Notes: a model not told the origin generated them from the sequence alone. A stretch of 64,000 bases of DNA from a virus (IMGVR_UViG_3300004369_000002:40840-104839), one strand, 5' to 3'; shown: positions 6,643 to 36,390, numbered from the stretch's first letter. Numbers and translations: made by a program.

Positions 6643-7383
6643 ATGGCTGGTGCAGGTTTTCGAACATGGGTAGACGAGGAGCCTCTATATGCGGCTGATG
6701 TCGTTTCGTATCTCATGGAGCAGTCGGTTATGGTGTTTGCGTCCACGAGTGCCAGAGATGCCGCAATCTCTGTTCCGACGGAAGGAATGATCTCCTACAC
6801 CAAGGATGACAATGTGATCCGTTACTTCGATGGGACGTTGTGGAATGCCATTGGGGAGATCACTGGTGGCTCAGGTATTTCGGTTTCAGAGTCAACATCG
6901 TCGTTCACAATTTCGTTGAATGTTGATGCTAAGGGTGATTTGCTGGTTGGTACCGCCAACGACACGGTGGCTCGTATCCCTGTCGGTTCCGATGGTCAGG
7001 TTTTGACTGCCGCGTCAGGAGAGACAACTGGTGTGGCTTGGCAAGATGGCTTCACTTATGCGTCGCCTTTAACAACACAGACAAAGTCAGCGTCTTACAC
7101 GCTTAGTTCTGCTGATGCCGGAAAGTTGTCTTGGATTGATACAACCGCTGGTGATGTGATTATTACGCTCCCTGATGGCGCTACAGATCCTGGCTTGGAT
7201 GACGGTCACCAATTCATGTTTCTAAGTATCAGTTCTGCGAACGATGTTATTTTCCAGGGCAATGGCACATCAAATGTCGTTAGTAAAAATGCCTTTCTGA
7301 CCATGAAGGGCGCATATCATGCTGTAACAGCAGTATTCTACGCTACATCTGATACTTGGATTCTGGTAGGCGATCTGGGATAA
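6643..7383 (+). CDS. Tail fibre linker protein (AKGD repeat; C-terminal W.L.GDL domain)
   Basis: VDAKGDLLVGTANDTVARIPVG...GVAW; ends DTWILVGDLG. Confidence 0.65.
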   Translation: MAGAGFRTWVDEEPLYAADVVSYLMEQSVMVFASTSARDAAISVPTEGMISYTKDDNVIRYFDGTLWNAIGEITGGSGISVSESTSSFTISLNVDAKGDLLVGTANDTVARIPVGSDGQVLTAASGETTGVAWQDGFTYASPLTTQTKSASYTLSSADAGKLSWIDTTAGDVIITLPDGATDPGLDDGHQFMFLSISSANDVIFQGNGTSNVVSKNAFLTMKGAYHAVTAVFYATSDTWILVGDLG

Positions 7384-7385
7384 TC

Positions 7386-9014
7386 ATGCCTAACTTCTCC
7401 TATTATCTAGCGTCGCAGGCTGTTTCGGGTCGTGAAGTCAATGTGTATCTTCTCGTTCATCGACTTGATACGACTGGAACCAACAAATTAACGGATCTTG
7501 TCAATGTTGGCCCGTACGATGTAAATGGTCGCGATACCTATGATCAAGTGGCGCTAGGAATAAAAAATGATGGAGGTTTTGATTCTGATGGTCCATTTGA
7601 TTACTGGCATATTTACGCGCCCCATAGTCGTGGGGACTCATTCTGGGGTCCTCTAAGTCCAACTGCAAACTTCAACATCAGTGCACCGCAATACGACGGA
7701 GTTTACAGCGGTGGCGCAACATCATCAGAGCCAACAACAAGACTCACAGCGCTCAATCAAAACATGCATGTGTATCAGGCTCTGGCTCAAGAAGTTATTG
7801 CCAATAACGACTATGACATGGTTGTTCTGGCGTGGATGTACGACGACCTGGTTTTGGGGCCGCTTATTGGTGTGCCACTGTATCAATGGGGAAGAAAAAT
7901 TACTGCTGGTTCAGGGGACAGGTTTTTAAGTAATTTGTATTTTGACAATTGGAATACATACCTCTACTGGGGTTTGCACGGCACTACCACATCGCTAGGT
8001 CAGACATATATGTACCTGCGAAAGTACAACCAGTCTGGCACATTGATCTGGCATCGACGATTGCAGTCAACCGTAACATCGCCGACTCGTAATCAGATGG
8101 GAACCTTGGCGGGTTTTGACACTGGCCGAATAGTCGTGCCAATTACTGTTGCCGCCTCGTCCACGGAATACAAGTTTGGCCTTGCTTATTATGACGCGTC
8201 AGGCAACCTAGAGGCGAACTCTATTTACTACTCTTGGGACAGCCCTGCTGTGAGTGGCTATGCGAGTCCAGCATCATCAGTAGTTTCGTCGCGCCCAGCG
8301 TGGGATCGACAATATTTTGGTTGGCACTGGTATGACTTTGATTACACTCAGGCTCAAACAAATTTCATCGCGGCACTTGGAGCCAGTGTTGGCACATTCT
8401 TTTTCACGCAGACCACCGCACCAGGTTTGATGGTGTCTGGTGCCATTGAGACTCTTGGTTCTGATCCGGGCGATGCAATTTTCCTCTGCCTTAACGATGA
8501 AACAGGGTTTGCTGCCACATCGCTTGTTTTGATCAAATTGGATTTTGACGGTGATGTTATTTGGCAAAGAAAACTCACTGTAAGAGGGCAGTATGAAACT
8601 GGTGGCGCAGTCACCAGTGGAACAACAACGATTTCCCAAGCGAAAATTAACTGGCGTGACGAAGAGGGATTTTCCTTGGCCCTCACAGTGAAGGAAGAAT
8701 CCGGCTGGGGTGGGGATCCCGACTCTCCGGAAATTACCGCTTTCATGTCTTTCCCCTCTGATGGTTCGGGATTGACGGGAGAGTATGTCAAACTTGAATT
8801 TGATCAGGGATTCAACTCAAGCCTAAATCCTCTGGTGTCACTAGCGTATAAATATGAAGAATCAAACTTTGTGTTTAGTGAACCAGTATTGATCAGCGAG
8901 ACTCAAGTTGGGGCGACGAGCGCTACCACCAACCCGTTTAGCCAAACTAATGTCACATCTAGTCCAACGAAGACTGAGTTTTCGGTTGAATCGGCGAACG
9001 GAGTGTATCGATGA
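7386..9014 (+). CDS. Putative receptor-binding / beta-propeller-like structural protein
   Basis: Repeats LRKYNQSGTLIWHR and LIKLDFDGDVIWQRK resemble propeller blades. Confidence 0.5.
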   Translation: MPNFSYYLASQAVSGREVNVYLLVHRLDTTGTNKLTDLVNVGPYDVNGRDTYDQVALGIKNDGGFDSDGPFDYWHIYAPHSRGDSFWGPLSPTANFNISAPQYDGVYSGGATSSEPTTRLTALNQNMHVYQALAQEVIANNDYDMVVLAWMYDDLVLGPLIGVPLYQWGRKITAGSGDRFLSNLYFDNWNTYLYWGLHGTTTSLGQTYMYLRKYNQSGTLIWHRRLQSTVTSPTRNQMGTLAGFDTGRIVVPITVAASSTEYKFGLAYYDASGNLEANSIYYSWDSPAVSGYASPASSVVSSRPAWDRQYFGWHWYDFDYTQAQTNFIAALGASVGTFFFTQTTAPGLMVSGAIETLGSDPGDAIFLCLNDETGFAATSLVLIKLDFDGDVIWQRKLTVRGQYETGGAVTSGTTTISQAKINWRDEEGFSLALTVKEESGWGGDPDSPEITAFMSFPSDGSGLTGEYVKLEFDQGFNSSLNPLVSLAYKYEESNFVFSEPVLISETQVGATSATTNPFSQTNVTSSPTKTEFSVESANGVYR

Positions 9015-9331: not shown

Positions 9332-9351
9332 TTTCAGTGCAGGAGTAAAAA

Positions 9352-10368
9352 ATGACCGTTTCCCAGACAACCCGATTTGGTATCTACCGCTGGAGTGAAG
9401 ATACTGATGCCTTCACGCGTCAGCAAATGGACTCTAGCCACGACTCCATCGAATCAAAAGGGGCCATTTTTACCTCGGGGACAACAATCCCTGCACCAAA
9501 CCCCGAGCACGCCCGATCGTTCTTCTTCAAAACAGACACCCAAACGCTCTACTACTTCAACGGCACAGATAATACGGGGTCGTGGGTGGCTATCGGCCAG
9601 TTCGGAAACACAGGCCAAATGGCCACTCTCGCATACGGCCAATCGAACAGTGCAGGCGTCGTCGATGCTGTGGCCCGAATTGACCATGTCCACGAACTGC
9701 CCACGATTGACACGACGGCTCTGATCCCAAAAAATATTTTGACAAGCAAGGGCGATCTGATAGCCGGAGCAGGTCCCTCAACTCCAACAGTTCAGGGTGT
9801 GGGTGCGGACGGCCAGTTTCTGAAGGCTGACTCCTCATCGGCGACAGGTCTTTCTTGGGGAACCGTAGTAACGACTGGTTTTCTGTCATCGACCGTGGTC
9901 GACGCGAAGGGCGATTTGCTGGTTGGAACAGGAAACGACACGGTTGCTCGTCGTTCTGTTGGGACAAACGGCCAACTTCTTATTGCCGACTCATTTCAAT
10001 CAACCGGCTTGCGCTGGGGGAATGATCCTCAGTTCCAGAAGTACAGTGAAGGCTTGCTTTCAGTTGGCTCCTATTCTGGTTCCACTGTCGGCGATCAGGC
10101 CAACGTGTATTACATTGAATTGGGATCCAGTCAAACGTTGACCCTGTCTGCAGGTGTTGCGACAGCAAATACTGCGTATTCGCTGTCCCTGATCATCAAG
10201 AACACGGCAGCCAGCGTCACAATGACTTTTCCTGCTTCGGTGAAATGGCCCAACGGCACGCGACCGACAGAAGATACAGGTCTTAACAAGACGAACCTGT
10301 GGACACTGATCACTTACGATCAGGGCACTACCTGGCTTGGCTTTTTGGCAGGACGAGGGTTCTCGTGA
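9352..10368 (+). CDS. Tail fibre linker protein (two AKGD repeats; C-terminal FPASVKWP...TWLG domain)
   Basis: ARIDHVH motif; two KGD repeats; SD AGGAG. Confidence 0.65.
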   Translation: MTVSQTTRFGIYRWSEDTDAFTRQQMDSSHDSIESKGAIFTSGTTIPAPNPEHARSFFFKTDTQTLYYFNGTDNTGSWVAIGQFGNTGQMATLAYGQSNSAGVVDAVARIDHVHELPTIDTTALIPKNILTSKGDLIAGAGPSTPTVQGVGADGQFLKADSSSATGLSWGTVVTTGFLSSTVVDAKGDLLVGTGNDTVARRSVGTNGQLLIADSFQSTGLRWGNDPQFQKYSEGLLSVGSYSGSTVGDQANVYYIELGSSQTLTLSAGVATANTAYSLSLIIKNTAASVTMTFPASVKWPNGTRPTEDTGLNKTNLWTLITYDQGTTWLGFLAGRGFS

Positions 10369-11342
10369 GCCATTTTGGTGTTGGTGGTGCTGGCCGTTTT
10401 AGGCCAAACATTGGGTATTTGCAGCGAAACCCTACTGCGCTTGGTTCGGGTTCCTCCATTGGAGGGGACATCGAACAAAATGGTAGTGGGGCAGCAAACC
10501 CTTACATTAGAATTGGTTCAGGTTTTAGGCCAGGGAACTCCCTGACGCAAACAAGCAACAGTCACGCTTTGTGGAATGTGTACTCGCCAAACGCTGACAT
10601 TTCGTCCAACATGATTGTCCCTGATGGTAGCGGAATCTATTTCCGGTACAAAGACATCAATAGGATGTGGCGTTTGATTATGGGCGAATATCTGTATAAC
10701 TACTACACTGTTCCCGCTTTTTACCAAGAAGCGACATGCACGGGCTGCTATTTGACCAGTTACTCAACAACACAACAAGAATTCTCATACGAGTGCACGT
10801 CAATATACTCATACGGAACCGTATACACATCCAGCAACTACAGTTACTGTAGTTATGGCGGATACAGCCAACTATACGATTATAGTCGCGTTTGGAAATC
10901 GTATTGCGACTCATCTTGCGGATGCAACCCAACATACGCAAACCTATACGGCTGCGCAGGAAAATGCCAGGACTTTATTACCCGCACCTACTACCAGTGT
11001 ACGGGCGGAACATCGGGAACATACATCGCTGGTTCACAAACACCAAACTATCGTCCCCGGCTTTTCTTGCAATACCGGAATGGCTCTTCGACGTGGACCA
11101 ATCACGGAACAATCAATCTGACCGGTGCTGAGGTTGGCGGACTTAGGGTACGGCTCGTTGGTAACTCCATCGTTGTTTACAAGGGAACGTATGGTCAAAC
11201 ATCGGGGTGGACGCAAATCGGATCATATACGTCGTCTATTCACAATGACGGTCTCTTTCATGGGATTGGGATAGGCAGCGAGAACCCCCAAAACCGTGGA
11301 GTAAGCAGCGGTATAGGCGCATTTACCATCGAAGGAATCTGA
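10365..11342 (+). CDS. Lectin/ConA-like protein with Cys/Tyr-rich insertion
   Basis: GTG overlaps the upstream stop; GIYFRYKD...W and LRVRLVGNSIVVY...HGIG flank a 10-Cys insert. Confidence 0.55.
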   Translation: MSHFGVGGAGRFRPNIGYLQRNPTALGSGSSIGGDIEQNGSGAANPYIRIGSGFRPGNSLTQTSNSHALWNVYSPNADISSNMIVPDGSGIYFRYKDINRMWRLIMGEYLYNYYTVPAFYQEATCTGCYLTSYSTTQQEFSYECTSIYSYGTVYTSSNYSYCSYGGYSQLYDYSRVWKSYCDSSCGCNPTYANLYGCAGKCQDFITRTYYQCTGGTSGTYIAGSQTPNYRPRLFLQYRNGSSTWTNHGTINLTGAEVGGLRVRLVGNSIVVYKGTYGQTSGWTQIGSYTSSIHNDGLFHGIGIGSENPQNRGVSSGIGAFTIEGI

Positions 11343-11343
11343 G

Positions 11344-11974: not shown

Positions 11975-11976
11975 CA

Positions 11977-12535: not shown

Positions 12536-12553
12536 ACCAATCTCCGACAAGGG

Positions 12554-15108: not shown

Positions 15109-15561
15109 GTGGCTCAGAGATTCACAACGCCAATATCTATCGCGCAGTTATCTTCTGCGTCATCAGATGCTATCTCTGTGCTTGTCGACGGCGATGTCAG
15201 CCCTCGGGTCAAAGTAGAAGCAGGGGGACGCCTCACGTGGGGTGATGGAACATCTTCCGGCGATGTTGTTCTATATCGTGACTCTGCAAATCTCCTCAAA
15301 ACTGATGACACCTTTCAGGCCACTGGCGGTGTCGCCACTATTACGAACCCCGGTCCTCCCCCGAACGCTCTTGTTCGCCCAGTCGGAACACTTCTCGTTG
15401 ACTCAACCAACGACACCTTCTACTTCTATGGAACGCTCGGCTGGACGCAAATCGTCGGCGGAGAAGGCGGCGGTGGCGGTGGCGAACAAATCAATCTTGA
15501 CGGTGGCGACTCCGACGAAATTTTCGGTGGCATCGTAAGCATTGATGGAGGAACCGCCTGA
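15109..15561 (+). CDS. Fibre structural protein with C-terminal IDGG motif
   Basis: LYRDSANLLKTDD; ends LDGG...IDGGTA; precedes the Mtd_N gene. Confidence 0.55.
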   Translation: MAQRFTTPISIAQLSSASSDAISVLVDGDVSPRVKVEAGGRLTWGDGTSSGDVVLYRDSANLLKTDDTFQATGGVATITNPGPPPNALVRPVGTLLVDSTNDTFYFYGTLGWTQIVGGEGGGGGGEQINLDGGDSDEIFGGIVSIDGGTA

Positions 15562-17285
15562 TGGGTACCCGCATACAATTCCGTCGTGATTCATCGTCCA
15601 ACTGGACAATAAATAACCCCGTTCTGGCCGAAGGAGAAATGGGGCTAGAACTTGATACACGACGTATCAAAATCGGTAACGGTTTAGACAACTGGAACAA
15701 CCTGCCGTACGGCATTGCGACTATTGGCATTGACGAACTTGTTGATGTCACAATCACCGACCCGCAAGACGGCGAACTCATCGTTTACGACAGTGCAACT
15801 AGCACATGGGTCAATACATCAGCATCACTCGTAGCCGAACAAAATGACCTAACCGACACGGTCATCACCAACCCACAGCCGGGCCAATACCTTCAGTACG
15901 ACGGCACACAATGGGTTAACGGGGTCAGCCCGACCGGTGAACCCCTGGGCCACGAGGACAGAACCACCAGTCACATTGCATTCGACTCTGGAACTCTCAC
16001 GTTCTCCATTGAACCAAAGTTACCAGTAACAGAATTTGTGGTCTGGGTTGGTGGCATCAAATACACCTACACAACCACGCAAAGCGTCACAATCCCTGAT
16101 GTCACCGGCCTCTACTACTTCTACTTTAATTTGTCTGGTGCGCTGGCATACAAGACCACCTACTTTGACTGGCCCGTTGAAGCGCCGACTGCCTACCTAT
16201 ACTGGAACGCAACGACAAGCACCGCAACATTCTTTGCTGACGAACGGCATGGCATCGTCCTTGACTGGCAAACCCACGAATACCTCCATCGAACACGAGG
16301 TGCGGCATTCGCAGCAGGCTTCAACATTTCGGGCGTCATCACTAATGGCGACGGAACCCTTGACACCCATGTTGAGTTCAGCCTAAGCAACGGAACATTT
16401 TTTGACGAAGACCTACAGGTCGACATCGTCGATTCAGCAACACCAACAGTTGACACCTGGGAGCAAGACCTATCCCCAGCGTCAATTCCTCTCTACTACC
16501 TGGATGGTACAGAGTGGGTGCGCGATTCAGCCAGCACTAATCCCGTCAAAAAGGGAACGACCTTCGCTGTCTACAACGAACTTTCACTTGGCTCATGGCA
16601 ACTTACAGAAGTCGCCAACGGTGCTTACGTTATTTCTTGGATTGTCGCAACAAACCAACTCAACACCCCGGTTATCGCCATCATGGGACAAGGCGAATAC
16701 ACCAACATCGGGGACGCCGAGGACGAAATCTGGGAAACAGTCAACCTAGACGACTTCCCAGCCTTTGAATTCCGACCGCTGTACAAACTCATCTACCAGA
16801 CTGGCTCTTATGGAAATACCACAAACTCGCGGCTCAGGGGAGTCAATGACCTTCGTGGCGGAGGTACCTCAGGGAGTTCTGGGGCAGGGACAACCGACCA
16901 CGGACTCCTCACTGGGTTGGCAGACGACGACCACACCCAGTACCTCAACAATTCACGGCACAACAACCTTGACCATTCGGACGCACTGGCAACAGCCTCA
17001 CTGAGCGACCTGGGCGATGTCACTCTCGCTTCTATCAACACCGATGAACTTCTTCGGTGGAGTGGTACCGCCTGGGTGAACACCGATGGCATTACGATTG
17101 CGTCCACGGGTGCTGTCACCTTCAACGGCGTCAACACCTTCCCAACCGCCGCAGGTGGACTCGGCCAGTATCTGGCATCTGATGGTGCAGGGAATCTCGT
17201 TTGGACAAACGCAGGCTCAACAGCCGGTGGAATCATTAACAGTTCCTCATCAGGTGCTGTTCTCATCATGGAGATTGGACCGTAA
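15561..17285 (+). CDS. Tail fibre protein with Mtd/hyaluronidase-type N-terminal domain
   Basis: RIQFRRD...W...NPVLAEGEMGLELDT..IKIGNG...WNNLPY; DHGLLTGLADDDHTQY; L.DV.I repeats. Confidence 0.8.
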   Translation: MGTRIQFRRDSSSNWTINNPVLAEGEMGLELDTRRIKIGNGLDNWNNLPYGIATIGIDELVDVTITDPQDGELIVYDSATSTWVNTSASLVAEQNDLTDTVITNPQPGQYLQYDGTQWVNGVSPTGEPLGHEDRTTSHIAFDSGTLTFSIEPKLPVTEFVVWVGGIKYTYTTTQSVTIPDVTGLYYFYFNLSGALAYKTTYFDWPVEAPTAYLYWNATTSTATFFADERHGIVLDWQTHEYLHRTRGAAFAAGFNISGVITNGDGTLDTHVEFSLSNGTFFDEDLQVDIVDSATPTVDTWEQDLSPASIPLYYLDGTEWVRDSASTNPVKKGTTFAVYNELSLGSWQLTEVANGAYVISWIVATNQLNTPVIAIMGQGEYTNIGDAEDEIWETVNLDDFPAFEFRPLYKLIYQTGSYGNTTNSRLRGVNDLRGGGTSGSSGAGTTDHGLLTGLADDDHTQYLNNSRHNNLDHSDALATASLSDLGDVTLASINTDELLRWSGTAWVNTDGITIASTGAVTFNGVNTFPTAAGGLGQYLASDGAGNLVWTNAGSTAGGIINSSSSGAVLIMEIGP

Positions 17286-19391: not shown

Positions 19392-19394
19392 ACA

Positions 19395-21294: not shown

Positions 21295-21296
21295 TT

Positions 21297-23434: not shown

Positions 23435-23531
23435 CCAGATAAACGACCATTTCCCCCCATAAACCAACCCAAGATAAATAATGCCATTGTGGTATTATCA
23501 GACAGGGAGTTCTTCGGTTTGGAGAAACGTG

Positions 23532-23893: not shown

Positions 23894-26800
23894 ATGGCAA
23901 AAGAATTAATTCACAACTATCGCTTTAATCCGGCGACAAACACCATTTACCTGCGTGGAAACATTACGCCCGAAAAGTTTTTGTTGATCACCAACATCAC
24001 ACGCAACGAACCCCTTTACCTCTTTAACTCGCCAGCATACGGATTTGTCACAGTAGTCTTCGACCAAGAAACCGAAGAGACAGAAGTCATTCTGGTCGCA
24101 GACTGCTCAGCAATGTCTGCAAGCGACAAACTTCAGGTTTTCGTTGAATCATACGCCCAAGAATTCAGACCCACCAAAGAATTCATCGACCCTGTTCAAA
24201 AACTCAGAGTTTCTAACCCAGAAAACCTGATCGACACAGACTTCGAATATGGACTGCAGTCAACCAAGTGGGAAACCCTCCAGACTGTCAATAACATCCC
24301 GACGGTCTATTCTTCCTCTGGCGACCTTCCCGTGGAAGCAATCACATCAGTAGAGTCAATTGCCGGTTCAAAGCAGATTCGTGTGTCTACAGGAAGCCCT
24401 CACGGCGTGTCTCTTGGAGACCCGATCTCGGTGCAGGGCCTGACCCAATATCAGGCAGAAGGATATTTCACTGTCTCTGGCGTCCCAGACCCTCTGACTT
24501 TCTTCTACGAACTGGATGTCCCCGCTACTACAACCGGCGACATCTCTGGCGGCTACACGACGATCATCCCCGCAAAGTTTTTTGACGGATCCGCCCTTCC
24601 AATCAATATTGAAGACGGAGCACTGTCAGACGAAAATAGCCCCTCTTTGTTGAGCGTCACCACGAACGAAACTCACGGATTTTCCGCCGGAACCAAAGTC
24701 TATCTACGCAACACCGTAGGGCCAAAAGACCTCATCATTGTCGACCCAACAGGCACAGCGCCAGACAATAGGCCATACATCGATACTCAGCCGTCGTTTT
24801 CCATTTCATTGTCAGTTGACAACACGGCCTCTACAGGACGTGGAACATTCCGTGAACCGCAAACCGTGTCATGGGACTGGGAATCCACTTACGTAAAGTA
24901 TCTTGCGACCAACGATTTCAACGGTGCAACCGACGAGGTGAACTGGCCCAACCATGGACTCCATGACCGGGCGTGCCTGTTGTTCAACACTCCGATTCAA
25001 GGCAATGACAATGGTGGCCTCACAGACGGATACGTGTACTACGTTAAAGTGGTTGATCAAGACAAAATTCAGTTGTGCACAGACTATGAGCAACTGCTCA
25101 ACGTGGTTCCTCTTTCGCTTTTGGACAACGACTTTGGTCCTTCGCGTCTAGGTCTTGTATACAAGGTTGAAAGAAACAGCGGCACTACAAGGTATACGGC
25201 GAGTAACACACGCGGCGTTTCTTCAACTCAGACTTACTTGTATCACTACGGAAATAACACCACGTACAACCATAATTTATCTCAATACACTGGCGGACAA
25301 AAGCCAGATTCGGTAAGAATCACCCAAGTTTATGGTTATAGCGGATATTATTGGGGCTATACATACCACTATATTGGAAGGAATGGTTCGGCAGGCACGA
25401 ACTTTGTTACTACATATCCGTACAGCGGAAGCGGGTACTGGTATGGCAATTATGACGCTACCAGTTGGCTTTGGCAGTCCGGAAACGTATGGTATATCAC
25501 GGGTCGTTCTTACTCTCCTTGGGGTTTTTATGGCTCGTCGTGGTTCAACACGACAGTTTCCTACACCGATCCAAATGGGGGCGCCGATCAGTCCGGCTAC
25601 GACCTACGAACAGCCGTTTTCGGCCTCGGTTCAGACGACCCTGACAGAATGATCGCGTTCCAGGGGCGCACACCAGGGTCTTACAGCGCCTCGTCTGAGA
25701 ACTTCTCGTATCTAGCCAACACGCGAACAAACGGTAGATATGGCGTTCTTGCCATCCCATACCAAAATGACGTAGTCTCAGCCTCAACCCTTGATGGAAC
25801 TTTCGTCAGCGACTACAACGACTCTGGTCTTGAAAGTTTCCCAACCAACTCGGAGATTTTCTACGGATTCGCCCGAACCCTGACTTCCGACCGAAATACC
25901 GTCTACTCACCCAACCACGGAATTGAAGAGCAAACAAACGCCACAATACAAGTCGACGCAACCGACTACTTGAATGGCGACCGATTTGCGTACGCCGATT
26001 CCCAGGGAACAATAACGACAATCAACAGCCAAACAATAAATATTCAAATTATTCCGGTAAACAACGATCTGTTTCGCATGCAGATTATTGGGGCACCAAA
26101 CACCGACAATATCGTTCGTTACCCTCGCCGGTACTCCGTCTCTTACATCCAGGCCAACGACTTCTACAACACCATTTATGTTAGCAACCATAAAGTTGTA
26201 GGTACTGAAGAAGCCGTCTACTCACACTCTGGGTACGATCCGGAACGAATCATCGAATACGCGGTTACCAATGACGGAGTGTCGGCCTACGTATTCACCT
26301 CTTCCGATACAAACATGGATGGATCGGCGCTAGTTACCGGTTCCAATCCAACACTTTCCCTCTACCGTGGAGTCACATACCATTTCACGTTAAATGCGCC
26401 CAGTCACCCTTTCTACATCAAAACATCCCCAACAACCGGGTCCGGAGATCAATACACAACAGGTGTTTCAGGTAACGGCAGTGATGTGGGCGTTGTTTTG
26501 TTTACCGTTCCGGCAGACGCCCCACCCACCCTGTATTACGCCTGTGGCGTCCACGCTGCTATGCAGGGAGAAATAACCATCACCGAAATGCCCAACAACA
26601 TCGGTGGACTTTCTTTCGGAGATACATACAACCTGAACCGAGTCAACGATTCGCGACTGGAAGTCATCGCAGCAATCAGTCAGGACGCATCTGCAACCAC
26701 ATCTGCCTACGGCTACCCGAATAATGCGACCCAAACTTTCTATGTGGATGTTGAAACTCCGCTAGGGATTGACCCTGCCGCCTGCACCATCGTCGGAATC

Positions 26801-29635
26801 GAATTCCGTGGCGACTTCAGCGACCGAAACGAATATTTGCTGTTGACATTTGATGATGGTGACCAGTATTTCGTGGGCGTCAACGGCTCCGACTCTGCCA
26901 TTTGGCAGCCCGAAACCGGTTTTGGCGTCAAGGACATCACTTCCCTACTTTCCGTTCAGGGAGGCAAGAAATCATTCCGTGTCACAGTCGACCCAACCAA
27001 CCAGGTGAACTTCTATTACCTCGGGCAGTGGAACGCTTCCAACCTGTGGGAAATCCGTTTCATTGTTTCTGGCGATACAGGCACAATCGGACTGTCTAGT
27101 GGAGGTGTCGGCGAGCAGAAGTTCTCCATCCCAACACTCCTTGGAGCATATGACGGCGTTTATGGGGTTACGGACGTAACTTCACAAAACACCTTCGACT
27201 TGCAAACGGACTTTACGATACCTCGCCGCAAGTACCTGTTCACATCATCTGATGTTGATAATGTCAGCAATACAATTACTTTTGCCAGCCCCCACAACCT
27301 GCTCACGGGCGAAGAAATTCAATACGATCCGAATGGAAATCAATCTATTTTCGATCAAATGTGGGATTCCCTCTACGCGATTGTAGTTGACGCCACGACA
27401 ATTAAAATAGCGGTCAGTTCATTGTCGGCGATCAACAATGATTCACTAAACATAACCCCGCAAAGTGGAGCGCACCTTTTTTACACCACCAACGTAATAA
27501 AAGGCAACACCGGGTCGGGAATTGTCACGACGGTGGCAGGCGAAAAGGAAGTAACTGGATCCGGAACACGCTTCCTGTCGACCTTCAAAAGATTTGACCC
27601 TATTTGGATTGTAGAGAATGGCGTATCCAACCGCTACACCGTTGACGTCATCACAACCGAAGAGGCGATGGTCCTATTTGAAGCAGTAGAAACATCTCAA
27701 GTCGACGTCAACTACTTCTTCTCCACGCAAATAATTCTAAGGCCTGACGGATTCTCTCTTCACAAACCATTCGACGGCGGAGTCGACATTACGGCTGGAA
27801 CCTCCCCCAATAGCAAGATTGTCCGCCAGTCACGCAAATACTTCCGTTACCAGTCCGGTAAAGGCATTCAAAACTCCTTTGCAATCAACCTCAACCCGCC
27901 GCGACTGGTCGGTCAGTTGTCTCACTCCGGTTCCGGTATTGCCCTAGTCGAAACACAAGAAATTCACAACCTGAAGGCGGGCAACCTTTTCGTCATGAAG
28001 GATGCCACGGTTACCTCTGGACAAAACCCGTACAACGGAGAATTCACCGTCCTTCAAGTTATTGACCCATTCACCTTTACCTACGATATGGGTGCCGTTC
28101 CCACACAAACCAAGGCCGGAGGATACCCAACCTATTATCGGCGTTCCTGGAATGATGCATACGTTCGGGCTGGAATGTTTGACGATCAAAACGGCTTCTT
28201 CTACGAGTACGACGGAAACAAGATTTACTGCGTTCGCCGTTCGTCGACTCAACAAATCGGCGGAACAGTCAACGTTACACGTGGTTCGCAGGTCATTACG
28301 GGCAACAGAACATCGTTCACAAGTCAACTAGGAGTTGGCAACAAGGTCGTAGTTCGCGGACAGTCTTATCTGATCGTAGAAATATCTTCTGACACTCGCA
28401 TGGTCGTACAGCCTGCATATCGTGGCGTTGACGCCCGAAACGTGAAGGCAACAATTACTGTCGATACCAGGGTCCCCCAAGAGGACTGGAGCATTGATCC
28501 CTGTGATGGGACAGGGCCTACCGGGTTTATTTTGAACGTCAACAAAATTCAAATGGGCTATGCCGATTACTCTTGGTACGGTGCCGGTAAGATCCGTTTT
28601 GGATGGAAAGATCAGAACGGTGAAGTTCGTTACGTTCACGAGTTCAAACACAACAACCGTTTAGACGAATCGTATTTCCGTACAGGTAACTTGCCTGGCC
28701 GCTACGAAATCGAAAACGGCTCCAACGCAAACCACGCGCCAACCTTGTTTCACTTTGGTACGTCGATCATTATGGACGGAACATTCGACGACGACAAGGC
28801 GTACCTATTCACAGCACAGTCAAAGCCGTTTGCTTTCACCAACGGTACCAGCATTTCGTTTAATACTAACGCTGGATCCTCTTATCAGTTGGTGACTCTG
28901 AACGGGCGGCGAGTCTGGGTGTATGCCCTTCCCGTACCTGAGGCTAACGCCCAGTCGGTGAGCACCGGTACTCTGATTCGGGATAACGGGAACGTAAGAT
29001 TGCCTGAGGGCACTTATGTGACTCAGGTCAAACTAGATGGAGCGAATTCGCTGATCTATACCTCGTATCCGGCGACGTCCACAGAACCTGGACCGCCCAC
29101 TTACACCGACATTCCCAGCAGCACAAGCATCATTGCTGGTGAAACGACTGCAATTGACTTGACGCGTCCTCTTCCGCTGATCTCAATTCGTTTGGCCCCA
29201 TCCGTGGACTCGTCTCTGACGGGAGCGATCGGCGAACGTGAAATCATTAATCGAATGCAGTTGCAGTTACGTCAGGCTGGTGTGACTGCGAACCAGGACA
29301 TTCTGGTGTTCTTGATTCTGAATGCCCTTCCGTCGTCGTTGCATTTCGACAAAGTCCAGCAGCCTTCCCTCTCCGAGTTGATTGAACATAATGCCGGAGA
29401 GACCCTTCTGAATGGTACGACCATCTATTCATTGAAGGCTTCGGCCGGTTCAACCGAGATCGACTTGAGCGAACTGCTAGAGATGGGTAACTCCATATTG
29501 GGTGGTGATGGAATCTTCCCATCTGGCCCAGACTTGTTGACTGTTGCTGTTCAACCCCAGAACACGGCGGGCATTTCGGGGTCTACTCCGTTCTTCGTGT
29601 CAGGGAAAATCTCGTGGTCGGAAAGCCAGGCATAG
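23894..29635 (+). CDS. Giant 1913-aa virion structural protein with HG-type beta repeats and a cupredoxin-like domain
   Basis: DPVQKLRVSNPENLIDTDFEYGLQSTKWE; RQSRKYFRYQSGKG; YSWYGAGKIRFG; HPF...YYACGVHAAM. Confidence 0.75.
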   Translation: MAKELIHNYRFNPATNTIYLRGNITPEKFLLITNITRNEPLYLFNSPAYGFVTVVFDQETEETEVILVADCSAMSASDKLQVFVESYAQEFRPTKEFIDPVQKLRVSNPENLIDTDFEYGLQSTKWETLQTVNNIPTVYSSSGDLPVEAITSVESIAGSKQIRVSTGSPHGVSLGDPISVQGLTQYQAEGYFTVSGVPDPLTFFYELDVPATTTGDISGGYTTIIPAKFFDGSALPINIEDGALSDENSPSLLSVTTNETHGFSAGTKVYLRNTVGPKDLIIVDPTGTAPDNRPYIDTQPSFSISLSVDNTASTGRGTFREPQTVSWDWESTYVKYLATNDFNGATDEVNWPNHGLHDRACLLFNTPIQGNDNGGLTDGYVYYVKVVDQDKIQLCTDYEQLLNVVPLSLLDNDFGPSRLGLVYKVERNSGTTRYTASNTRGVSSTQTYLYHYGNNTTYNHNLSQYTGGQKPDSVRITQVYGYSGYYWGYTYHYIGRNGSAGTNFVTTYPYSGSGYWYGNYDATSWLWQSGNVWYITGRSYSPWGFYGSSWFNTTVSYTDPNGGADQSGYDLRTAVFGLGSDDPDRMIAFQGRTPGSYSASSENFSYLANTRTNGRYGVLAIPYQNDVVSASTLDGTFVSDYNDSGLESFPTNSEIFYGFARTLTSDRNTVYSPNHGIEEQTNATIQVDATDYLNGDRFAYADSQGTITTINSQTINIQIIPVNNDLFRMQIIGAPNTDNIVRYPRRYSVSYIQANDFYNTIYVSNHKVVGTEEAVYSHSGYDPERIIEYAVTNDGVSAYVFTSSDTNMDGSALVTGSNPTLSLYRGVTYHFTLNAPSHPFYIKTSPTTGSGDQYTTGVSGNGSDVGVVLFTVPADAPPTLYYACGVHAAMQGEITITEMPNNIGGLSFGDTYNLNRVNDSRLEVIAAISQDASATTSAYGYPNNATQTFYVDVETPLGIDPAACTIVGIEFRGDFSDRNEYLLLTFDDGDQYFVGVNGSDSAIWQPETGFGVKDITSLLSVQGGKKSFRVTVDPTNQVNFYYLGQWNASNLWEIRFIVSGDTGTIGLSSGGVGEQKFSIPTLLGAYDGVYGVTDVTSQNTFDLQTDFTIPRRKYLFTSSDVDNVSNTITFASPHNLLTGEEIQYDPNGNQSIFDQMWDSLYAIVVDATTIKIAVSSLSAINNDSLNITPQSGAHLFYTTNVIKGNTGSGIVTTVAGEKEVTGSGTRFLSTFKRFDPIWIVENGVSNRYTVDVITTEEAMVLFEAVETSQVDVNYFFSTQIILRPDGFSLHKPFDGGVDITAGTSPNSKIVRQSRKYFRYQSGKGIQNSFAINLNPPRLVGQLSHSGSGIALVETQEIHNLKAGNLFVMKDATVTSGQNPYNGEFTVLQVIDPFTFTYDMGAVPTQTKAGGYPTYYRRSWNDAYVRAGMFDDQNGFFYEYDGNKIYCVRRSSTQQIGGTVNVTRGSQVITGNRTSFTSQLGVGNKVVVRGQSYLIVEISSDTRMVVQPAYRGVDARNVKATITVDTRVPQEDWSIDPCDGTGPTGFILNVNKIQMGYADYSWYGAGKIRFGWKDQNGEVRYVHEFKHNNRLDESYFRTGNLPGRYEIENGSNANHAPTLFHFGTSIIMDGTFDDDKAYLFTAQSKPFAFTNGTSISFNTNAGSSYQLVTLNGRRVWVYALPVPEANAQSVSTGTLIRDNGNVRLPEGTYVTQVKLDGANSLIYTSYPATSTEPGPPTYTDIPSSTSIIAGETTAIDLTRPLPLISIRLAPSVDSSLTGAIGEREIINRMQLQLRQAGVTANQDILVFLILNALPSSLHFDKVQQPSLSELIEHNAGETLLNGTTIYSLKASAGSTEIDLSELLEMGNSILGGDGIFPSGPDLLTVAVQPQNTAGISGSTPFFVSGKISWSESQA

Positions 29636-29638
29636 CCC

Positions 29639-30259
29639 ATGGGCGTCAATTCCAATAACCCGATGAATGTCAGTGCAGGTGTCTGCACGACTCTTACTAA
29701 GCCGACTAATCCTTATGAGGGTCAGATGGTGTATGTCACTGATCTTCAAGAGTTGCAGGTTTGGAATGGAACGGTCTGGTTTTCCATTTACAGTGATACA
29801 ACCCCTATTGAAACGGCCATTGCACAAAACACGTCAGATATCGCCTCCATAGAAGTAACTCTTACTGTTTATGGTTCAAATATTTCGGCAAATGCTTCCG
29901 CAATAGCCGAAATTGAAAGCGACCTAGTTCTTTTTGATTCACAAATCCAATCGAACGCTTCCACCATTGCTTCATTGCCCGTCTTGCCGAATGGAGGTGG
30001 GGCCAGCAGCGTATTGGTGAAAAACTCTTCGGTGGATTATGACGTGGCTTGGATTCCCATAGTCACCGATGGTGTCTCCAGAACTCTTGTCGATGCCAAG
30101 GGGGACATTTTGGTTGCATCGGCTAATGACAATGTTGTTCGTCTAGGGGTTGGCTCTGACGGACAAGCCCTAGTTGCTGACTCGTCCACGGCGACTGGCT
30201 TGAACTGGGCAGATATTGCCGACCCGATACCGTTGATTTTGGCGCTTGGAGGACTCTGA
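29639..30259 (+). CDS. Fibre linker (TKP..P..GQ motif, coiled coil, AKGD repeat, hydrophobic C-terminal peptide)
   Basis: N-x-x-x-I heptads; VDAKGDILV; ends PIPLILALGGL. Confidence 0.65.
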   Translation: MGVNSNNPMNVSAGVCTTLTKPTNPYEGQMVYVTDLQELQVWNGTVWFSIYSDTTPIETAIAQNTSDIASIEVTLTVYGSNISANASAIAEIESDLVLFDSQIQSNASTIASLPVLPNGGGASSVLVKNSSVDYDVAWIPIVTDGVSRTLVDAKGDILVASANDNVVRLGVGSDGQALVADSSTATGLNWADIADPIPLILALGGL

Positions 30260-30260
30260 A

Positions 30261-30581
30261 ATGGCTAATACCTTTACGAACACGCGCGCAGCGTTGACGG
30301 GGTCATCTGCGGTTGTTTACACCGTTCCGGTTGGGGCTACGGCCATCGTCCTTCTCGCTCAAGCAGCAAATGTCGATAACACTGGAGCGACTCCAGTAAC
30401 TTTGATTTGGAACAACGGAACCGACGATACTCACTTGACAAAAGAAGTTTCTATTCCTGCATACGCTGCCATCGGCTTACTGCAGGGCAAACTTGTTTTG
30501 AACCAGGGCAATAGCATTAAAGCGTACAGCGACGCCTCGTCTCGTGTGGAACTAACACTTTCGGTTCTGGAGATCACCTAA
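30261..30581 (+). CDS. ~106-aa 'TVP' adaptor protein (copy 3)
   Basis: MANTF...VYTVP...ANVD...KLVL...LSVLEIT. Confidence 0.7.
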   Translation: MANTFTNTRAALTGSSAVVYTVPVGATAIVLLAQAANVDNTGATPVTLIWNNGTDDTHLTKEVSIPAYAAIGLLQGKLVLNQGNSIKAYSDASSRVELTLSVLEIT

Positions 30582-31809: not shown

Positions 31810-31810
31810 G

Positions 31811-32380: not shown

Positions 32381-32393
32381 GTAAGGAGAAACA

Positions 32394-32696
32394 ATGGAAC
32401 AGTACCCCATGAAAACAATATTTGACATCAAGACGGGCCAAACGGAAACGGTTCCGTTTACCGCCGAAGAATATGCGGAACTTGAACAACGACGAGAAGC
32501 CGCTGATCTAAACATGAGCGGAATCCGATCTCGTCGAAACTCACTTTTGTCAGCATCCGACTGGACCCAACTGGCCGACTCCCCCTTGGACGATGACACC
32601 AAATCGGCATGGGCCACATACCGCCAGGAACTACGTGACCTGACAACAACATACTCGCGTGTTTCTGAAGTGGTCTGGCCAACTCCTCCGAGTTGA
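32394..32696 (+). CDS. Phage tail fibre assembly chaperone
   Basis: RSRRNSLLSASDWTQLADSP...WATYRQELRDL...WP. Confidence 0.85.
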   Translation: MEQYPMKTIFDIKTGQTETVPFTAEEYAELEQRREAADLNMSGIRSRRNSLLSASDWTQLADSPLDDDTKSAWATYRQELRDLTTTYSRVSEVVWPTPPS

Positions 32697-32704
32697 GGTG
32701 AATC

Positions 32705-33538
32705 ATGGGACAGGGTGGAGTAATAGGACAACCGAACCGACCTTCAACATCTGGGGATGTTGGGATTTGGCAAAACTGGAATCCGTCTTCCAATCTATTC
32801 ACTCAACAGTCATTTGACATAAGTTCAAGACATGCAAGTGGCGTGTGGGATCTTGCCTCTATGGCGCAATTCACCGGCAACAATCAGTGGCCGGTTCCCG
32901 TGGAATCCATGGTTCATCTATTCAACGCCAAGTCTAGTGTATTTTCTGGTATTTCGCTAAACCTCACAAATATTCCGCAAGACTACAATCATCTATATAT
33001 GTTAATTGACACCGTTGGTGATGCAGGAAGTTTTCACACAGACACCCAGTTTTGGTACCACCCATTAGCCCTTACTCTTTTCAACACGACTACTGCAACT
33101 GGAAGTTCTTTGACCGGTGGGCGTACGCGATTCTGGCTCCGATACTGGTCTAAAGAGGGAGGAAATTCTTACCAAGAGTTTTCGGACTTGAACACCACCC
33201 AAAACACTCATCCAATAGGAGTTATTGCACCAATCAATTGGGCGAACCAAATAGGATCACAGTTTGGTGGCTATAGCCTAACCTCACTAACTGAGTTATG
33301 GTTAATGAACTACTCAAAAACCGACTTTGACTCGGTGCGCAGTATTTTTAGCACATCTTTTGGAATCGGGTCTTATGCGGGCTGGCCCGAAAATGCTTAT
33401 CCCATATTTCATTCGACAACTTACGGAGACGCTGGATCATCATCAATACGATCCCTTGCTTTTCGGACATTTAATAATGGAGGAACAACCGGGAATGATC
33501 CAATAATGATAAGAGTTGCTGCGTTTGGGGTGAAATAA
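32705..33538 (+). CDS. Triplet-family beta protein T3a (N-terminal GGVIG..SGVW..WP peptide)
   Basis: NIPQDYNHL; SIRSLAF...AFGVK. Confidence 0.65.
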   Translation: MGQGGVIGQPNRPSTSGDVGIWQNWNPSSNLFTQQSFDISSRHASGVWDLASMAQFTGNNQWPVPVESMVHLFNAKSSVFSGISLNLTNIPQDYNHLYMLIDTVGDAGSFHTDTQFWYHPLALTLFNTTTATGSSLTGGRTRFWLRYWSKEGGNSYQEFSDLNTTQNTHPIGVIAPINWANQIGSQFGGYSLTSLTELWLMNYSKTDFDSVRSIFSTSFGIGSYAGWPENAYPIFHSTTYGDAGSSSIRSLAFRTFNNGGTTGNDPIMIRVAAFGVK

Positions 33539-34087
33539 ATGATCGGGTTTGAAAAAATTTCCTCTTGGCGTTCAACGTCTCAAATCATAAGCAGTTCTAT
33601 TACCATAAATAATCTGCCAAGTATTTATAAAAACTTTAGAATATTTTACTCATCCAACTACAACGGCGGAACTTCCAATAACCTTTTCATAATAAAGTTA
33701 GAAACTTCTGCCAATCCGATTTCTCGGCTCCGCAGTGGCGACATAGTCGGTTTTACCGGCGATTTTCAAAACTATAGTACGCAGAGTCTTCCAAATAGCG
33801 ACGACTACGTGACGATTGGTGAAGGCGGTAGCCGAGGTAAAATTGCCGCTCAAATTGATTTATCTTACGTAGGGGATAATGGGCCCTACACTGATCGCGT
33901 GCTTGTGTCTAGTCGATCTTTTTTTCACAATCTAAGCAACTTCTCAGTTTCCGGATTCAAGGCTAATGGCACGATAGAACTTGCATCGCCCTCTGATCGA
34001 ATAAGGAGCATAACAATTTCAGCGCCCGCTGACACTTTTGAAATAGATGTATACCAATACAGTTTTGAAATTTATGGAATGCGGTAG
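33539..34087 (+). CDS. Triplet-family beta protein T3b
   Basis: NNLPSIYKNFRI; RIRSITI...FEIYGMR; AT-rich with at least 10 ATA codons. Confidence 0.65.
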   Translation: MIGFEKISSWRSTSQIISSSITINNLPSIYKNFRIFYSSNYNGGTSNNLFIIKLETSANPISRLRSGDIVGFTGDFQNYSTQSLPNSDDYVTIGEGGSRGKIAAQIDLSYVGDNGPYTDRVLVSSRSFFHNLSNFSVSGFKANGTIELASPSDRIRSITISAPADTFEIDVYQYSFEIYGMR

Positions 34088-34089
34088 TT

Positions 34090-34617
34090 ATGGCATACAA
34101 ATTACTGGGCTCATCAGAACTAGCCTCCGATACATCTAATGTAACACTCTCCAATCTTTCATTTGACGGGCATACTATTGGCGTCAGGTATGACCTTACC
34201 GCGAGCCTGGCGGGTGCGAGCATTTTAACCGTAACCACCAATCAGGGTGTAAGTACAAGCAATTACAATTTTTATGGTTTTGGCGATGTGGAGGCAAATT
34301 CTTTTTATGATGACAACAACACGGTTTTGCAAACATTTTATTGCAGTTCTACAACCCTCCGAATGGTAGGCGATTTAACAATATACACATACGGACCAGA
34401 CGCCTCAGGCGGAAATTACACCAATGAAAGAAATGTAACAATACGCAATAAGTACAACTCCTTCGGTCCTGATAGTCTGCCAAACCCCAGCGATGAGTTC
34501 TACATTTATCGAAACCTCACATTCCAAACGCCGGACTCAGTCACAATATCAATACAAAAACAGCAAGGAACATTTGCGGCGGGCAGCAAATTCACCTTCT
34601 ACCAGATCACCAACTAA
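34090..34617 (+). CDS. Triplet-family beta protein T3c
   Basis: LASDTSNVTLSNL; ends FAAGSKFTFYQI. Confidence 0.65.
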   Translation: MAYKLLGSSELASDTSNVTLSNLSFDGHTIGVRYDLTASLAGASILTVTTNQGVSTSNYNFYGFGDVEANSFYDDNNTVLQTFYCSSTTLRMVGDLTIYTYGPDASGGNYTNERNVTIRNKYNSFGPDSLPNPSDEFYIYRNLTFQTPDSVTISIQKQQGTFAAGSKFTFYQITN

Positions 34618-34633
34618 AAGGTAAAATAGAACC

Positions 34634-35623
34634 ATGGCAGCAGTAGATTTCCCCGATACCCCCACGACAGGGCAGGTTTTCCAGGTTGGCACCCGACGCT
34701 GGGAATATGACGGCACCAAGTGGAAAGCCAAGCCGTTCGGCAATGAGCCATTCACCGCCAACACCGTCACAGCGACAACTGTCAACGCCACAACCCTAAA
34801 TGTTGACAGTACCGAGATTGACCTCACCGGCACAACAACCGGCGACACCCTCGTCTACGACGGAACCAAATACTCCCCAAGCGCCTTCAGCGCAAAAATC
34901 GATGCCTCCCTCTACAGCGCCAAAGGAAGCATACTCACCGCAGATGGCCTCCCCGCAATAACCGAATTGGCAGTCGGCGCAAACGGAACGGTACTCACAG
35001 CCGATAGCAGTACAGCCACCGGGCTGACCTGGGATGTCATCACCGATGACACAAAAATCGCCAAATCCACCCTACTCGCCAAGGGTTCCCTCATAACAGC
35101 CACCTCTTCGGGAACGCCCGTAAACTTTGGTGTCGGAACCGACGGAAACATTTTGCTTGCCGACTCCACCCAGGGTTCTGGTTTGCGTTGGGGAGCAATC
35201 TCCTCCTCTTCAATCGGCGACGACACCATAGATACAGCCAAAATAGTCGATCTTGCCGTAACAACAGGCAAACTGGCGGCCTACAGCGTAACGTCTGACA
35301 AAATGGGGCCCCTAACACTAAATTACGTTAGTTTGGCCTCTTACCTGCTAATTGGTGCAGACCGAAACAAAGTTATCATAATGAATAGCAGTGTATCCAA
35401 CCAAACTCTCACCATACCCGCAGACGCCTCAGTGTTCTTCGAAACCGGAACCCAAATAGCAGTAATCCGTGGAACAACCAACGAAGTAACCATCGCGGGT
35501 GACACCGGAGTAACCATCCGAAGCGACGGCAACAAAAAGCGAATCAGCCAAACTTGGACTTCAGTATCGTTGATCAAACTTGCGCCAGATGAGTGGTTTT
35601 TGGCAGGATCCGTCAAGACATGA
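34634..35623 (+). CDS. Fibre linker (DFP..P..GQ N-motif, two AKGS repeats, W.L.GS domain)
   Basis: AVTTGKLA repeats; FETGTQI...EWFLAGS. Confidence 0.65.
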   Translation: MAAVDFPDTPTTGQVFQVGTRRWEYDGTKWKAKPFGNEPFTANTVTATTVNATTLNVDSTEIDLTGTTTGDTLVYDGTKYSPSAFSAKIDASLYSAKGSILTADGLPAITELAVGANGTVLTADSSTATGLTWDVITDDTKIAKSTLLAKGSLITATSSGTPVNFGVGTDGNILLADSTQGSGLRWGAISSSSIGDDTIDTAKIVDLAVTTGKLAAYSVTSDKMGPLTLNYVSLASYLLIGADRNKVIIMNSSVSNQTLTIPADASVFFETGTQIAVIRGTTNEVTIAGDTGVTIRSDGNKKRISQTWTSVSLIKLAPDEWFLAGSVKT

Positions 35624-36390
35624 GACTTCTCAAATGGTTCGGAATTCTCTCTGGTGGCGGGCCCATCGAAGCCACCGGAGGCACAATAACCACCTCGGGG
35701 AACTATCGAATTCACTCATTCACCTCAACCTCCAACTTCGTCATCACGTCCGGAACGGGCATAGTTGAATATCTCATCGTTGGTGGTGGCGGAGGAGCAG
35801 GCAGCAACGGTGAACAGTCCGGAGGAGGCGGAGGCGGATCCGTCAGAACTGGCTCCTTTGAGATGTCATCCGGAACATATCTAGTCACAGTTGGAACATC
35901 GGTCGGAGCAAACAGCAACGGAAACGCCTCCGCACTTAACGGTATAACCGCCCCTGGTGGCGGACGAGGCTCATGGAGTTCTGGTCCACCCGGTAGTAGC
36001 GGAACTGGAGGCGGGGGATCTCCCTGGTATCCCGCTGGTGGTACTGGTAGCCCTGGCGGTAACGGCTATCAGTATGGCGACAACAGCGCAGGAGGTGGCG
36101 GCGGTGGTGCAGGAACCAGTGCCACCAGTCGAAACGGAGGTTCAGGGTTCCTCTCGGCTATCACCGGAACAAATACCTACTATGGCGGCGGCGGAGGCGG
36201 CGCTGGATGCTGCTATAACAAATGTTCTGGTGGAGGAAACTCTGGTGGAGCCGGAGGAGCCGGAGGCGGAGGTAACGGTTACCTAAACGGCGGCCCAACA
36301 AGCGGAACAAATGGCCTCGGAGGGGGTGGAGGCGCAGGCGGAGGCAACGGCGGATCTGGTATTGTCATCGTCAGATACCTAATCGAATAG
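35620..36390 (+). CDS. Glycine-rich fibre tip protein
   Basis: ATGG...HSFT...VEYLIVGGGGG...GGSGIVIVRY. Confidence 0.75.
   Translation: MRLLKWFGILSGGGPIEATGGTITTSGNYRIHSFTSTSNFVITSGTGIVEYLIVGGGGGAGSNGEQSGGGGGGSVRTGSFEMSSGTYLVTVGTSVGANSNGNASALNGITAPGGGRGSWSSGPPGSSGTGGGGSPWYPAGGTGSPGGNGYQYGDNSAGGGGGGAGTSATSRNGGSGFLSAITGTNTYYGGGGGGAGCCYNKCSGGGNSGGAGGAGGGGNGYLNGGPTSGTNGLGGGGGAGGGNGGSGIVIVRYLIE

Follow-up and report, generated by a model that had tools for sequence, protein, structure and literature searches.

Organization of the fibre-gene region

The 64,000-nucleotide stretch analysed here, referred to as the window, forms the final 64 kb of a viral genome of 104,839 bp that is present as a single contig (IMGVR_UViG_3300004369_000002, positions 40840-104839); all coordinates below are counted from the first letter of the window. 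Between positions 6,643 and 36,390 it carries a block of fibre genes, all on the + strand and in a single tight operon, in which several fibre proteins end in a short hydrophobic peptide (the tag) and the next gene begins with one of two domains, named TVP and GN. The block lies 3' of baseplate genes, as indicated by a weak gp44-like hub match and a Baseplate_J match (PF04865, E 1.8e-9). By DNA similarity search no near match to known phages was found, and the relatives of individual proteins came mostly from marine and freshwater phages, chiefly Synechococcus and Prochlorococcus myoviruses, pelagiphage podoviruses and a roseophage. The genes at the tag junctions are given below, where KGD denotes a short repeat and W.L.G knob (W domain) a C-terminal domain, both described later.

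15561..17285, + strand: fibre protein of 574 amino acids (aa); Mtd_N N-terminus (aa 5-41 match PF18454 at 49.9 bits, cut-off 26.3); divergent tag AVLIMEIGP at 17256-17282
17285..17617, + strand: stand-alone protein of 110 aa, predicted TVP jellyroll
17617..18360, + strand: tip protein of 247 aa; P..P..GQ..DT..W N-terminal motif and weak BclA_C/C1q-like C-terminal domain
18366..19391, + strand: fibre protein of 341 aa; N-terminal motif, KGD repeat and shaft; divergent tag KAFAYFMGA at 19362-19388
19395..20201, + strand: fusion of TVP (19398-19709), KGD repeat (19767-19877) and W.L.G knob (~19884-20192)
23481..23885, + strand: small fibre or adaptor protein of 134 aa; KGD repeat and canonical tag ALAIALG at 23862-23882
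23894..29635, + strand: virion structural protein of 1913 aa (the giant protein); N-terminal GN domain of ~125 aa (23894-24268) and gp10-like region (phrog_677) at aa 783-898
29639..30259, + strand: fibre protein of 206 aa; N-terminal motif and KGD repeat; cyanophage-type tag PLILALGGL at 30230-30256
30261..30581, + strand: stand-alone TVP protein of 106 aa, the most canonical of the three

Tag and partner domains within the genome

The tag is a hydrophobic C-terminus of 7-9 residues with the pattern x-Φ-x-Φ-x-Φ-G followed by 0-2 residues, and its extended consensus is D[DE]x[TIV]A[LF]AIALG. When a regular expression for the tag was run over all six-frame open reading frames (ORFs) of at least 40 aa of the 104,839-bp genome, exactly four ORFs were matched, 15561, 18366, 23481 and 29639. 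The hidden Markov model (HMM) of TVP matched exactly three places in the same genome, 17285 (E 8.5e-38), the N-terminus of 19395 (aa 2-105, E 3.9e-33) and 30261 (E 8.4e-46); with the HMM from alignment A3 the respective values were 1.5e-8, 6.3e-8 and 1.2e-39, and 30261 also matched phrog_1276 at 2.3e-12. An initial annotation of this DNA had pointed to three hydrophobic C-termini standing in front of such domains and a fourth in front of the 1913-aa protein, and all four were present as quoted: each of the three TVP domains begins 0-4 nucleotides (nt) after a tagged gene, and the fourth tag precedes the only GN domain of the genome, that of the 1913-aa protein. The short spacing itself is uninformative, because intergenic distances of 4 nt or less were found at 29 of the 43 junctions of the operon. 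Identity among the three TVP domains is low, about 20-30%, and their tags diverge in parallel. The same annotation had read 19395 as a fusion of TVP, linker and W.L.G modules, and this architecture was confirmed, with TVP at aa 2-105 (E 4e-33), the KGD repeat at aa 125-161 and the W domain at aa 166-266.

Conservation of the pairing in other phages

Conservation of the adjacency in related phages had been set beforehand as a test, and the pairing held in both directions across unrelated phages. Starting from TVP, homologues were detected in 94 phage records, and every locus that was opened (S-CAM9, HTVC010P, S-T4, CRP-9, S-SCSM1, L005-L008 and L219-L228) carried a tagged fibre gene upstream. 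The upstream C-termini were TPLIIALED in S-CAM9, PTALAIALG in HTVC010P, TPFILALGD in S-T4, ALALAIALG in CRP-9 and TPFILALGGN in S-SCSM1, and those of the IMG/VR loci were of the same kind.

Starting from the tag alone, IMG/VR viral contigs were scanned, irrespective of codon choice, for A-[LF]-A-I-A-L-G with a TAA stop, which gave at least 120 stretches, and 80 loci were read. A downstream ORF was in reach at 70 of the 80, and 65 of these 70 matched a TVP HMM that had been built only from the window and its close relatives. The TVPs following the tag showed a median pairwise identity of 41% and fell into 30 clusters at 70%, and the tagged proteins upstream of them spanned 41-1191 aa and were of several N-terminal types. 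A scan of metagenomes yielded three short contigs only. The pairing of tag and partner recurs in hundreds of marine phage contigs, and for this reason appears to be a widespread mode of joining.

The tag was encoded by 72 distinct 24-mers in the 80 loci, every codon for Ala, Leu and Ile being in use; this free variation of synonymous codons indicates selection on the protein and not on the DNA. The type of tag tracks the clade of TVP, TPFILALG[DE] being found with cyanomyovirus TVPs without a MANTFK start, and ALAIALG with MANTFK-type TVPs. In two close relatives of the phage, L133 and L134 (83-87% identity), the termini that meet at the 18366-19395-20198 junctions are identical to those of the window. 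In L134 (239-850) the homologue of 17617 keeps the first ~60 residues and carries a different and shorter C-terminal tip, which looks like a recent tip swap; exchange of tips between relatives is the modular exchange expected at such joints.

Many of the tagged proteins are very small (63-134 aa; in L013, L025, L032, L067, L006 and 23481 of the window) and hold little beyond an Mtd_N-like or KGD element and the tag, which would suit a role purely as adaptors. The fibre described as 'chain-like' in phage A1002 is a different system.

Family, fold and virion status of TVP

In a profile search of 1.84 billion representatives, the TVP family comprised at least 3,648 clusters (50% identity) at E ≤1e-3. 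Most members are stand-alone proteins of 101-117 aa, some are tandem doubles, and in some TVP forms the N-terminus of proteins of 268-324 aa. TVP behind a long fibre was absent from the top 150 family members; a word-indexed search for such longer forms, which is weak evidence, also gave none. The proteins P0054, P0125 and P0138 have the order TVP, ITTAKIADDAVT-like repeats, the N-terminal motif of the window's fibre genes (here TRPxSPxxGQxIYETDT...W) and a beta-rich tip, which by sequence is the equivalent of window genes 17285 and 17617 in a single chain. The metagenomic proteins P0016, P0038 and P0081 are tandem TVP-TVP forms of 213-307 aa, an arrangement that hints that TVP may work as an oligomer with fusible copies.

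From a deep alignment, AlphaFold2 predicted TVP as a nine-strand beta-sandwich jellyroll with a per-residue confidence (pLDDT) above 90. The nearest folds, small oligomeric jellyrolls all at about Z 9 and therefore generic, were the trimeric cement protein of phage KHP40, the STIV turret, Bacillus Ena subunits and TNF/C1q. Neither Pfam nor NCBIfam holds a curated TVP model; comparison with Pfam at E 0.01 or better gave no family, including the chaperones PF16778 and PF02413, apart from one chance-level pectinesterase match. The ESM Atlas search returned hypothetical viral clusters only, and by sequence no relatives in the PDB were found for TVP, 19395, the W-domain profile, 9352 or the giant protein. 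A relationship between TVP and the W domain was suggested by an IP.NAS-like stretch aligned by MAFFT, and was rejected as an artefact (hhalign 2.4%).

Two cultured phages bear on the presence of TVP in virions. In S-SCSM1 the homologue is ORF27, which is flanked by two tail fibre genes and annotated as "virion protein", the paper on this phage describing mass spectrometry of CsCl-purified virions; the copy in HTVC010P is annotated as "virion structural protein".

GN domain as the second partner of the tag

The 1913-aa protein matched phrog_5838 at E 6.4e-177. Its N-terminal 120 aa are common to 441 proteins of 1052-3348 aa (~50% identity), and the family occurs in cyanomyoviruses, a freshwater podovirus and an actinobacterial phage, the cyanomyovirus homologues being annotated as virion structural proteins. 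The GN alignment fetched 80 IMG/VR loci, in 79 of which the upstream gene was scored. The tag was present on 36 of the 43 distinct upstream C-termini, as against 1 of 144 background ORFs of the same loci (Fisher p 2.5e-30), and five of the seven C-termini without the tag were near variants of it. By sequence, the tag has two alternative partner domains, TVP and GN, both located at the N-terminus of the next protein. In the podovirus L136 (39.9 kb), a fibre with a T7 gp17-like N-terminus ends in AVAYAIALGG, and 5 nt further on begins a protein of 1736 aa that is homologous to the giant protein and carries its GN domain. Since it is the tagged fibre of L136 that holds the tail-binding N-domain, the tagged protein should be tail-proximal and the GN protein distal. 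The idea that the N-terminus of the giant protein is a diverged TVP was dropped because hhalign gave probabilities of 0.06% (single sequence) and 0.4% (profiles).

Repeats, W.L.G knobs and neighbouring genes

The most recurrent fibre module of the region, not listed in the initial annotation, is the KGD repeat of ~37 aa, KGDLLVG..VARLPVG.DGQVL.AD...TGL.W. Nine copies are distributed over seven genes (6643, 9352 twice, 18366, 19395, 23481, 29639 and 34634 twice), and the repeat lies just before W knobs or tags. The repeat matched only PHROGs of unknown function (33513, 3030 and 32934) and gave no match among solved structures. An N-terminal motif had also been proposed to open 17617, 18366 and 29639, with variants in 6643 and 13557. 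The first three were matched by the regular expression and 13557 holds a variant; the variant in 6643 is weak, being missed by the expression and spanned only by a PHROG match over residues 17-74. The remaining genes of the region are listed below.

6643..7383, + strand: fibre protein of 246 aa; weak N-terminal motif, one KGD repeat (aa 97-133) and C-terminal W.L.G knob (~7060-7380)
7386..9014, + strand: protein of 542 aa following a W knob; N-terminus MPNFSYYLASQA; no family match
9352..10368, + strand: fibre protein of 338 aa; N-terminal motif, two KGD repeats and a shortened W-like C-terminal domain (PHROG tail fibre C-termini matched)
10365..11342, + strand: Cys-rich protein of 325 aa, beginning VSHFGVGG; GTGA overlap with 9352
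20198..21842, + strand: first triplet of ~180-aa beta-rich proteins (20198, 20761, 21297); 20198 begins VSVFAGIVSSSG, kept in the relative L133
30581..32380, + strand: second triplet (30581, 31228, 31811); 30581 begins MSGYIGTVP, an [YF][ILVM]G start typical after TVP
32394..32696, + strand: tail assembly chaperone (PF16778 Phage_tail_APC, E 9.7e-21)
32705..34617, + strand: third triplet (32705, 33539, 34090), weak paralogues of the second triplet
34634..35623, + strand: fibre protein of 329 aa; N-terminal motif variant, two KGD repeats and W.L.G knob (~35297-35620)
35620..36390, + strand: glycine-rich protein (PF21722 Gly_rich_2, E 1e-15), beginning MRLLKWFGILSGG

The chaperone gene 32394 lies directly 5' of the third triplet and is the sole recognisable assembly chaperone in the region. 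The "fibre" encoded at 13557-15056 may belong to the head instead of the tail: its matches include the head-decoration phrog_2647 (E 4.6e-44) and, among solved structures, the capsid decoration protein 9nx3_A (E 1.1e-8). Small proteins of the types MAH(Y/F)ALLD.., MNNYFAKL.. and MPLFAQID.. recur after glycine-rich fibre proteins, both in the related locus L005 (78-533, 4479-4859 and 6764-7225) and at 36399-37562 of the window.

As the initial annotation had stated, the W.L.G domain is shared by three genes, the C-terminal ~105 aa of 6643, 19395 and 34634 being homologous (BLASTP E 2.5e-12 and 4.7e-14), and a different gene follows each of them closely: 7386 starts 2 nt after the stop codon, 20198 with a GTGA overlap and 35620 with an ATGA overlap, all with the N-termini that had been quoted. 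The structural model of the W domain reached pLDDT above 90. Its best structural match was the knob of the Pa223 capsid spike gp52 (9ny6_C; Z 14.9, root-mean-square deviation 1.6 Å, 95 residues), described by its authors as the TNF-fold distal knob of a possible receptor-binding spike, with nothing reported bound to it. The next matches were a KP1 baseplate protein (Z 10.7) and residues 80-180 of CBA120 TSP4, which correspond to XD1 (Z 9.0); the XD1 relatives CpaA and StcE and, weakly, T4 gp9 were also matched; no match aligned to XD2 or XD3, an absence that does not exclude them. The authors of the TSP4 work regard XD1 as a spacer of unknown function, the docking platforms being XD2 and XD3 (PMC8825819). 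As modelled, the W.L.G domain is a distal TNF-like knob. In Gordonia, PinkBerry and Sinorhizobium phages the domain is again C-terminal and followed by a same-strand gene, the downstream proteins being mutually unrelated. A search with the W-domain query found no close viral relatives, Pfam and NCBIfam contain no model for it, and no similarity was detected between it and the gp10-like region of the giant protein.

Interpretation of the tag junctions

The pairing of the tag with an N-terminal domain appears to be undescribed, no account of it having been found in open-access text. It is most likely a head-to-tail joint between proteins of the same fibre. The analysis shows the genetic coupling of tag and partner, its breadth, the selection at protein level, the virion annotation, the N-terminal fusions and the folds; physical docking, its stoichiometry and its specificity are inferred, and we consider it probable that tag and N-terminal partner domain connect the products of consecutive fibre genes in this manner. 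The region as a whole is likewise probably the host-recognition arsenal of a phage of ~105 kb, with at least eight fibre units made from shuffled modules. The earlier proposal that a terminal peptide and the domain of its neighbour form a cognate pair, with gene order mirroring the order of assembly, is strongly supported for the tag-TVP and tag-giant junctions.

In the proposed mechanism, several fibres would be built of separate polypeptides joined head to tail, the proximal fibre protein ending in the hydrophobic tag of 7-9 residues and the next gene beginning with a TVP jellyroll or a GN domain. A trimeric shaft would end in three tags, and these would bind a trimer of TVP or GN. TVP could then serve as a stand-alone adaptor or, placed at the N-terminus as in 19395 and the fusions found elsewhere, anchor a tip protein, and shaft and tip would become exchangeable independently of each other. 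The three mutually divergent tag/TVP pairs of this genome would prevent mixing of the chains.

Several observations weigh against such a joint. Four tagged genes are followed by neither TVP nor GN. GN and TVP are without sequence homology (hhalign 0.4%), and one class of tag in front of two unrelated domains also fits a role of the tag that is independent of the partner. The virion label of ORF27 was not confirmed in a supplementary file of the S-SCSM1 paper. Two AlphaFold2 models of read-through fusions disagree on the conformation of the tag: in that of L047, a canonical pair, it was predicted as a short helix of pLDDT ~75 beside a confident TVP, and in the 18366-19395 fusion, modelled from a shallow alignment, as a strand beside the N-terminal strand of TVP at an unreliable pLDDT of ~35. 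Co-occurrence and co-diversification are moreover no proof of contact, because neighbours in an operon share ancestry.

A broader version is that marine and freshwater tailed phages share a fibre assembly code readable from sequence, in which an AxAIALG-type tag enters a TVP or GN socket, an aromatic-Φ-Gly peptide binds onto knobs, divergent pairs are orthogonal and gene order spells a possibly branched architecture; we put this forward tentatively, as a possibility that we do not favour. The full grammar of the initial annotation went further, with both TVP and W.L.G domains as sockets, the hydrophobic or Ser-containing N-terminal peptides of the next genes as plugs, and one branched tree bearing many tips. 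An aromatic-Φ-Gly motif, [YFWH][ILVMFA]G within the first 12 residues, is indeed found in 4 of the 44 genes of the window (10365 HFG, 20198 FAG, 30581 YIG and 35620 WFG), all four directly after a knob or TVP gene, and 45 of 59 genes following TVP elsewhere start with [YF][ILVM]G, compared with 29 of 497 background ORFs, the motif having been widened after the window was seen and the loci being phylogenetically dependent. Genes for W-knob proteins are also followed by proteins starting MNIFMKYGVLASQGG in the PinkBerry phage and MRHFGHSIG in Sinorhizobium phage Phosso (L010, after a 737-aa W-knob protein), and the giant protein has a gp10-like region, gp10-type proteins being branching hubs. 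Against this grammar, the W domain, for which the socket role had been read from adjacency, superimposes almost completely on the distal knob of Pa223, which is free, and among gp10-type modules was aligned to XD1, with no alignment to the docking domains XD2 and XD3 among its matches; the W-knob proteins of Gordonia phages are followed by genes without the N-terminal motif; and T7 gp17-like N-domains, which bind the tail, account for many of the [YF]IG starts. Nothing was found that favours a branched tree over several linear, parallel chains. The aromatic-Φ-Gly start after knobs and TVP is thus a lead only, the W socket and the branched tree are conjecture, and the full grammar seems to us unlikely.

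We also consider it rather improbable that TVP or GN is a fibre-specific assembly chaperone or folding cap that reads the tag at trimerisation and forms no permanent joint. Tail fibre assembly proteins are encoded after the fibre genes in P2, Mu and lambda, and a small gene directly 3' of a fibre gene is in the classic position of a chaperone; the tag is moreover located at the C-terminus, where many fibres begin folding, as known for T4 gp37/gp38 and Mu/P2 Tfa, and some chaperones, such as T2- and S16-type gp38, stay on the fibre as adhesins. The virion annotations of TVP homologues in two cultured phages argue against a transient role, as does the N-terminal fusion of TVP to tip proteins and to 19395, which has its own shaft repeat and knob. 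In addition, TVP is without a Pfam chaperone match whereas 32394 is a clear Phage_tail_APC, and GN forms the N-terminal end of a structural protein of 1913 aa.

A tag acting autonomously, for instance as a peptide that trimerises or caps the C-terminus in one fibre lineage, with TVP or GN adjacent by old gene order and without contact, has in our judgement a similarly small chance. Such a tag would account for its presence before two domains without detectable homology, for the four tagged genes that have neither neighbour, and for co-diversification, which linked genes can show without interacting. It accounts poorly for the extreme diversity of the upstream proteins, of which myo-, podo- and other phages have only the tag and its neighbour in common; inherited order alone hardly explains a mosaic that is reshuffled about one fixed junction, and four tags stand genome-wide one to one with four partner domains. 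That the junction is a DNA-level recombination linker for module exchange and not a protein feature, as swapped tips beside conserved junctions in close relatives might suggest, is contradicted by the 72 distinct 24-mers in 80 loci and their free synonymous variation, and is extremely improbable.

Significance and comparison with known systems

Fibres decide the host range of phages, and most fibre genes of cyanophages, pelagiphages and roseophages are annotated as "hypothetical" or "structural". If the tag and its partner domain form the proposed joint, the sequence would reveal which proteins build one fibre and in which order. The joint would also explain the independent swapping of shafts and tips, and would provide a defined junction for studies of host range in phages of marine bacteria. 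Description of the TVP family would improve the annotation of thousands of viral contigs.

Bacillus Ena subunits, the best Foldseek match of TVP (E 7.4e-5), are also small jellyrolls, and are chained via short terminal connector peptides. The match is generic (Z 9.2, TM 0.49), however, and unlike Ena, TVP has no Cys-based connectors and stands in an unrelated context. TVP resembles the Caudo_TAP and Phage_tail_APC chaperones in being a small gene directly after a fibre gene, and differs from them in being annotated in virions, in its fusion to tips and in the absence of a family match, a separate Phage_tail_APC being present at 32394. The W domain is located C-terminally after a beta-rich trimeric shaft, as is the knob of Pa223 gp52; no sequence similarity to gp52 was detected, and gp52 is a head spike with nothing described on its knob.

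In the branched tailspike complexes of CBA120 (TSP1-4) and G7C (gp63.1/gp66), which are built on T4 gp10-like XD domains, small trimeric beta-sandwich or jellyroll modules near the termini serve as platforms for receptor-binding trimers (PMC8825819). The window shares with them the gp10-like region of the giant protein and the XD1 fold of the W domain. Their docking domains XD2 and XD3 are N-terminal, whereas the XD1-like W domain is C-terminal, and TVP matched none of them specifically.

The small separate protein at the C-terminal end of the shaft recalls T2- and S16-type gp37/gp38, in which it is exchangeable. A parallel in genetic logic is the long tail fibre of T4, for which consecutive genes in assembly order (gp34-gp35-gp36-gp37) encode one fibre. 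T4 fibre proteins were not among the family or solved-structure matches, and unlike in T4 the joint proposed here would consist of a tag of 7-9 residues and a jellyroll of ~105 aa, a pairing found in both myo- and podoviruses, and TVP can lead to further fibre.

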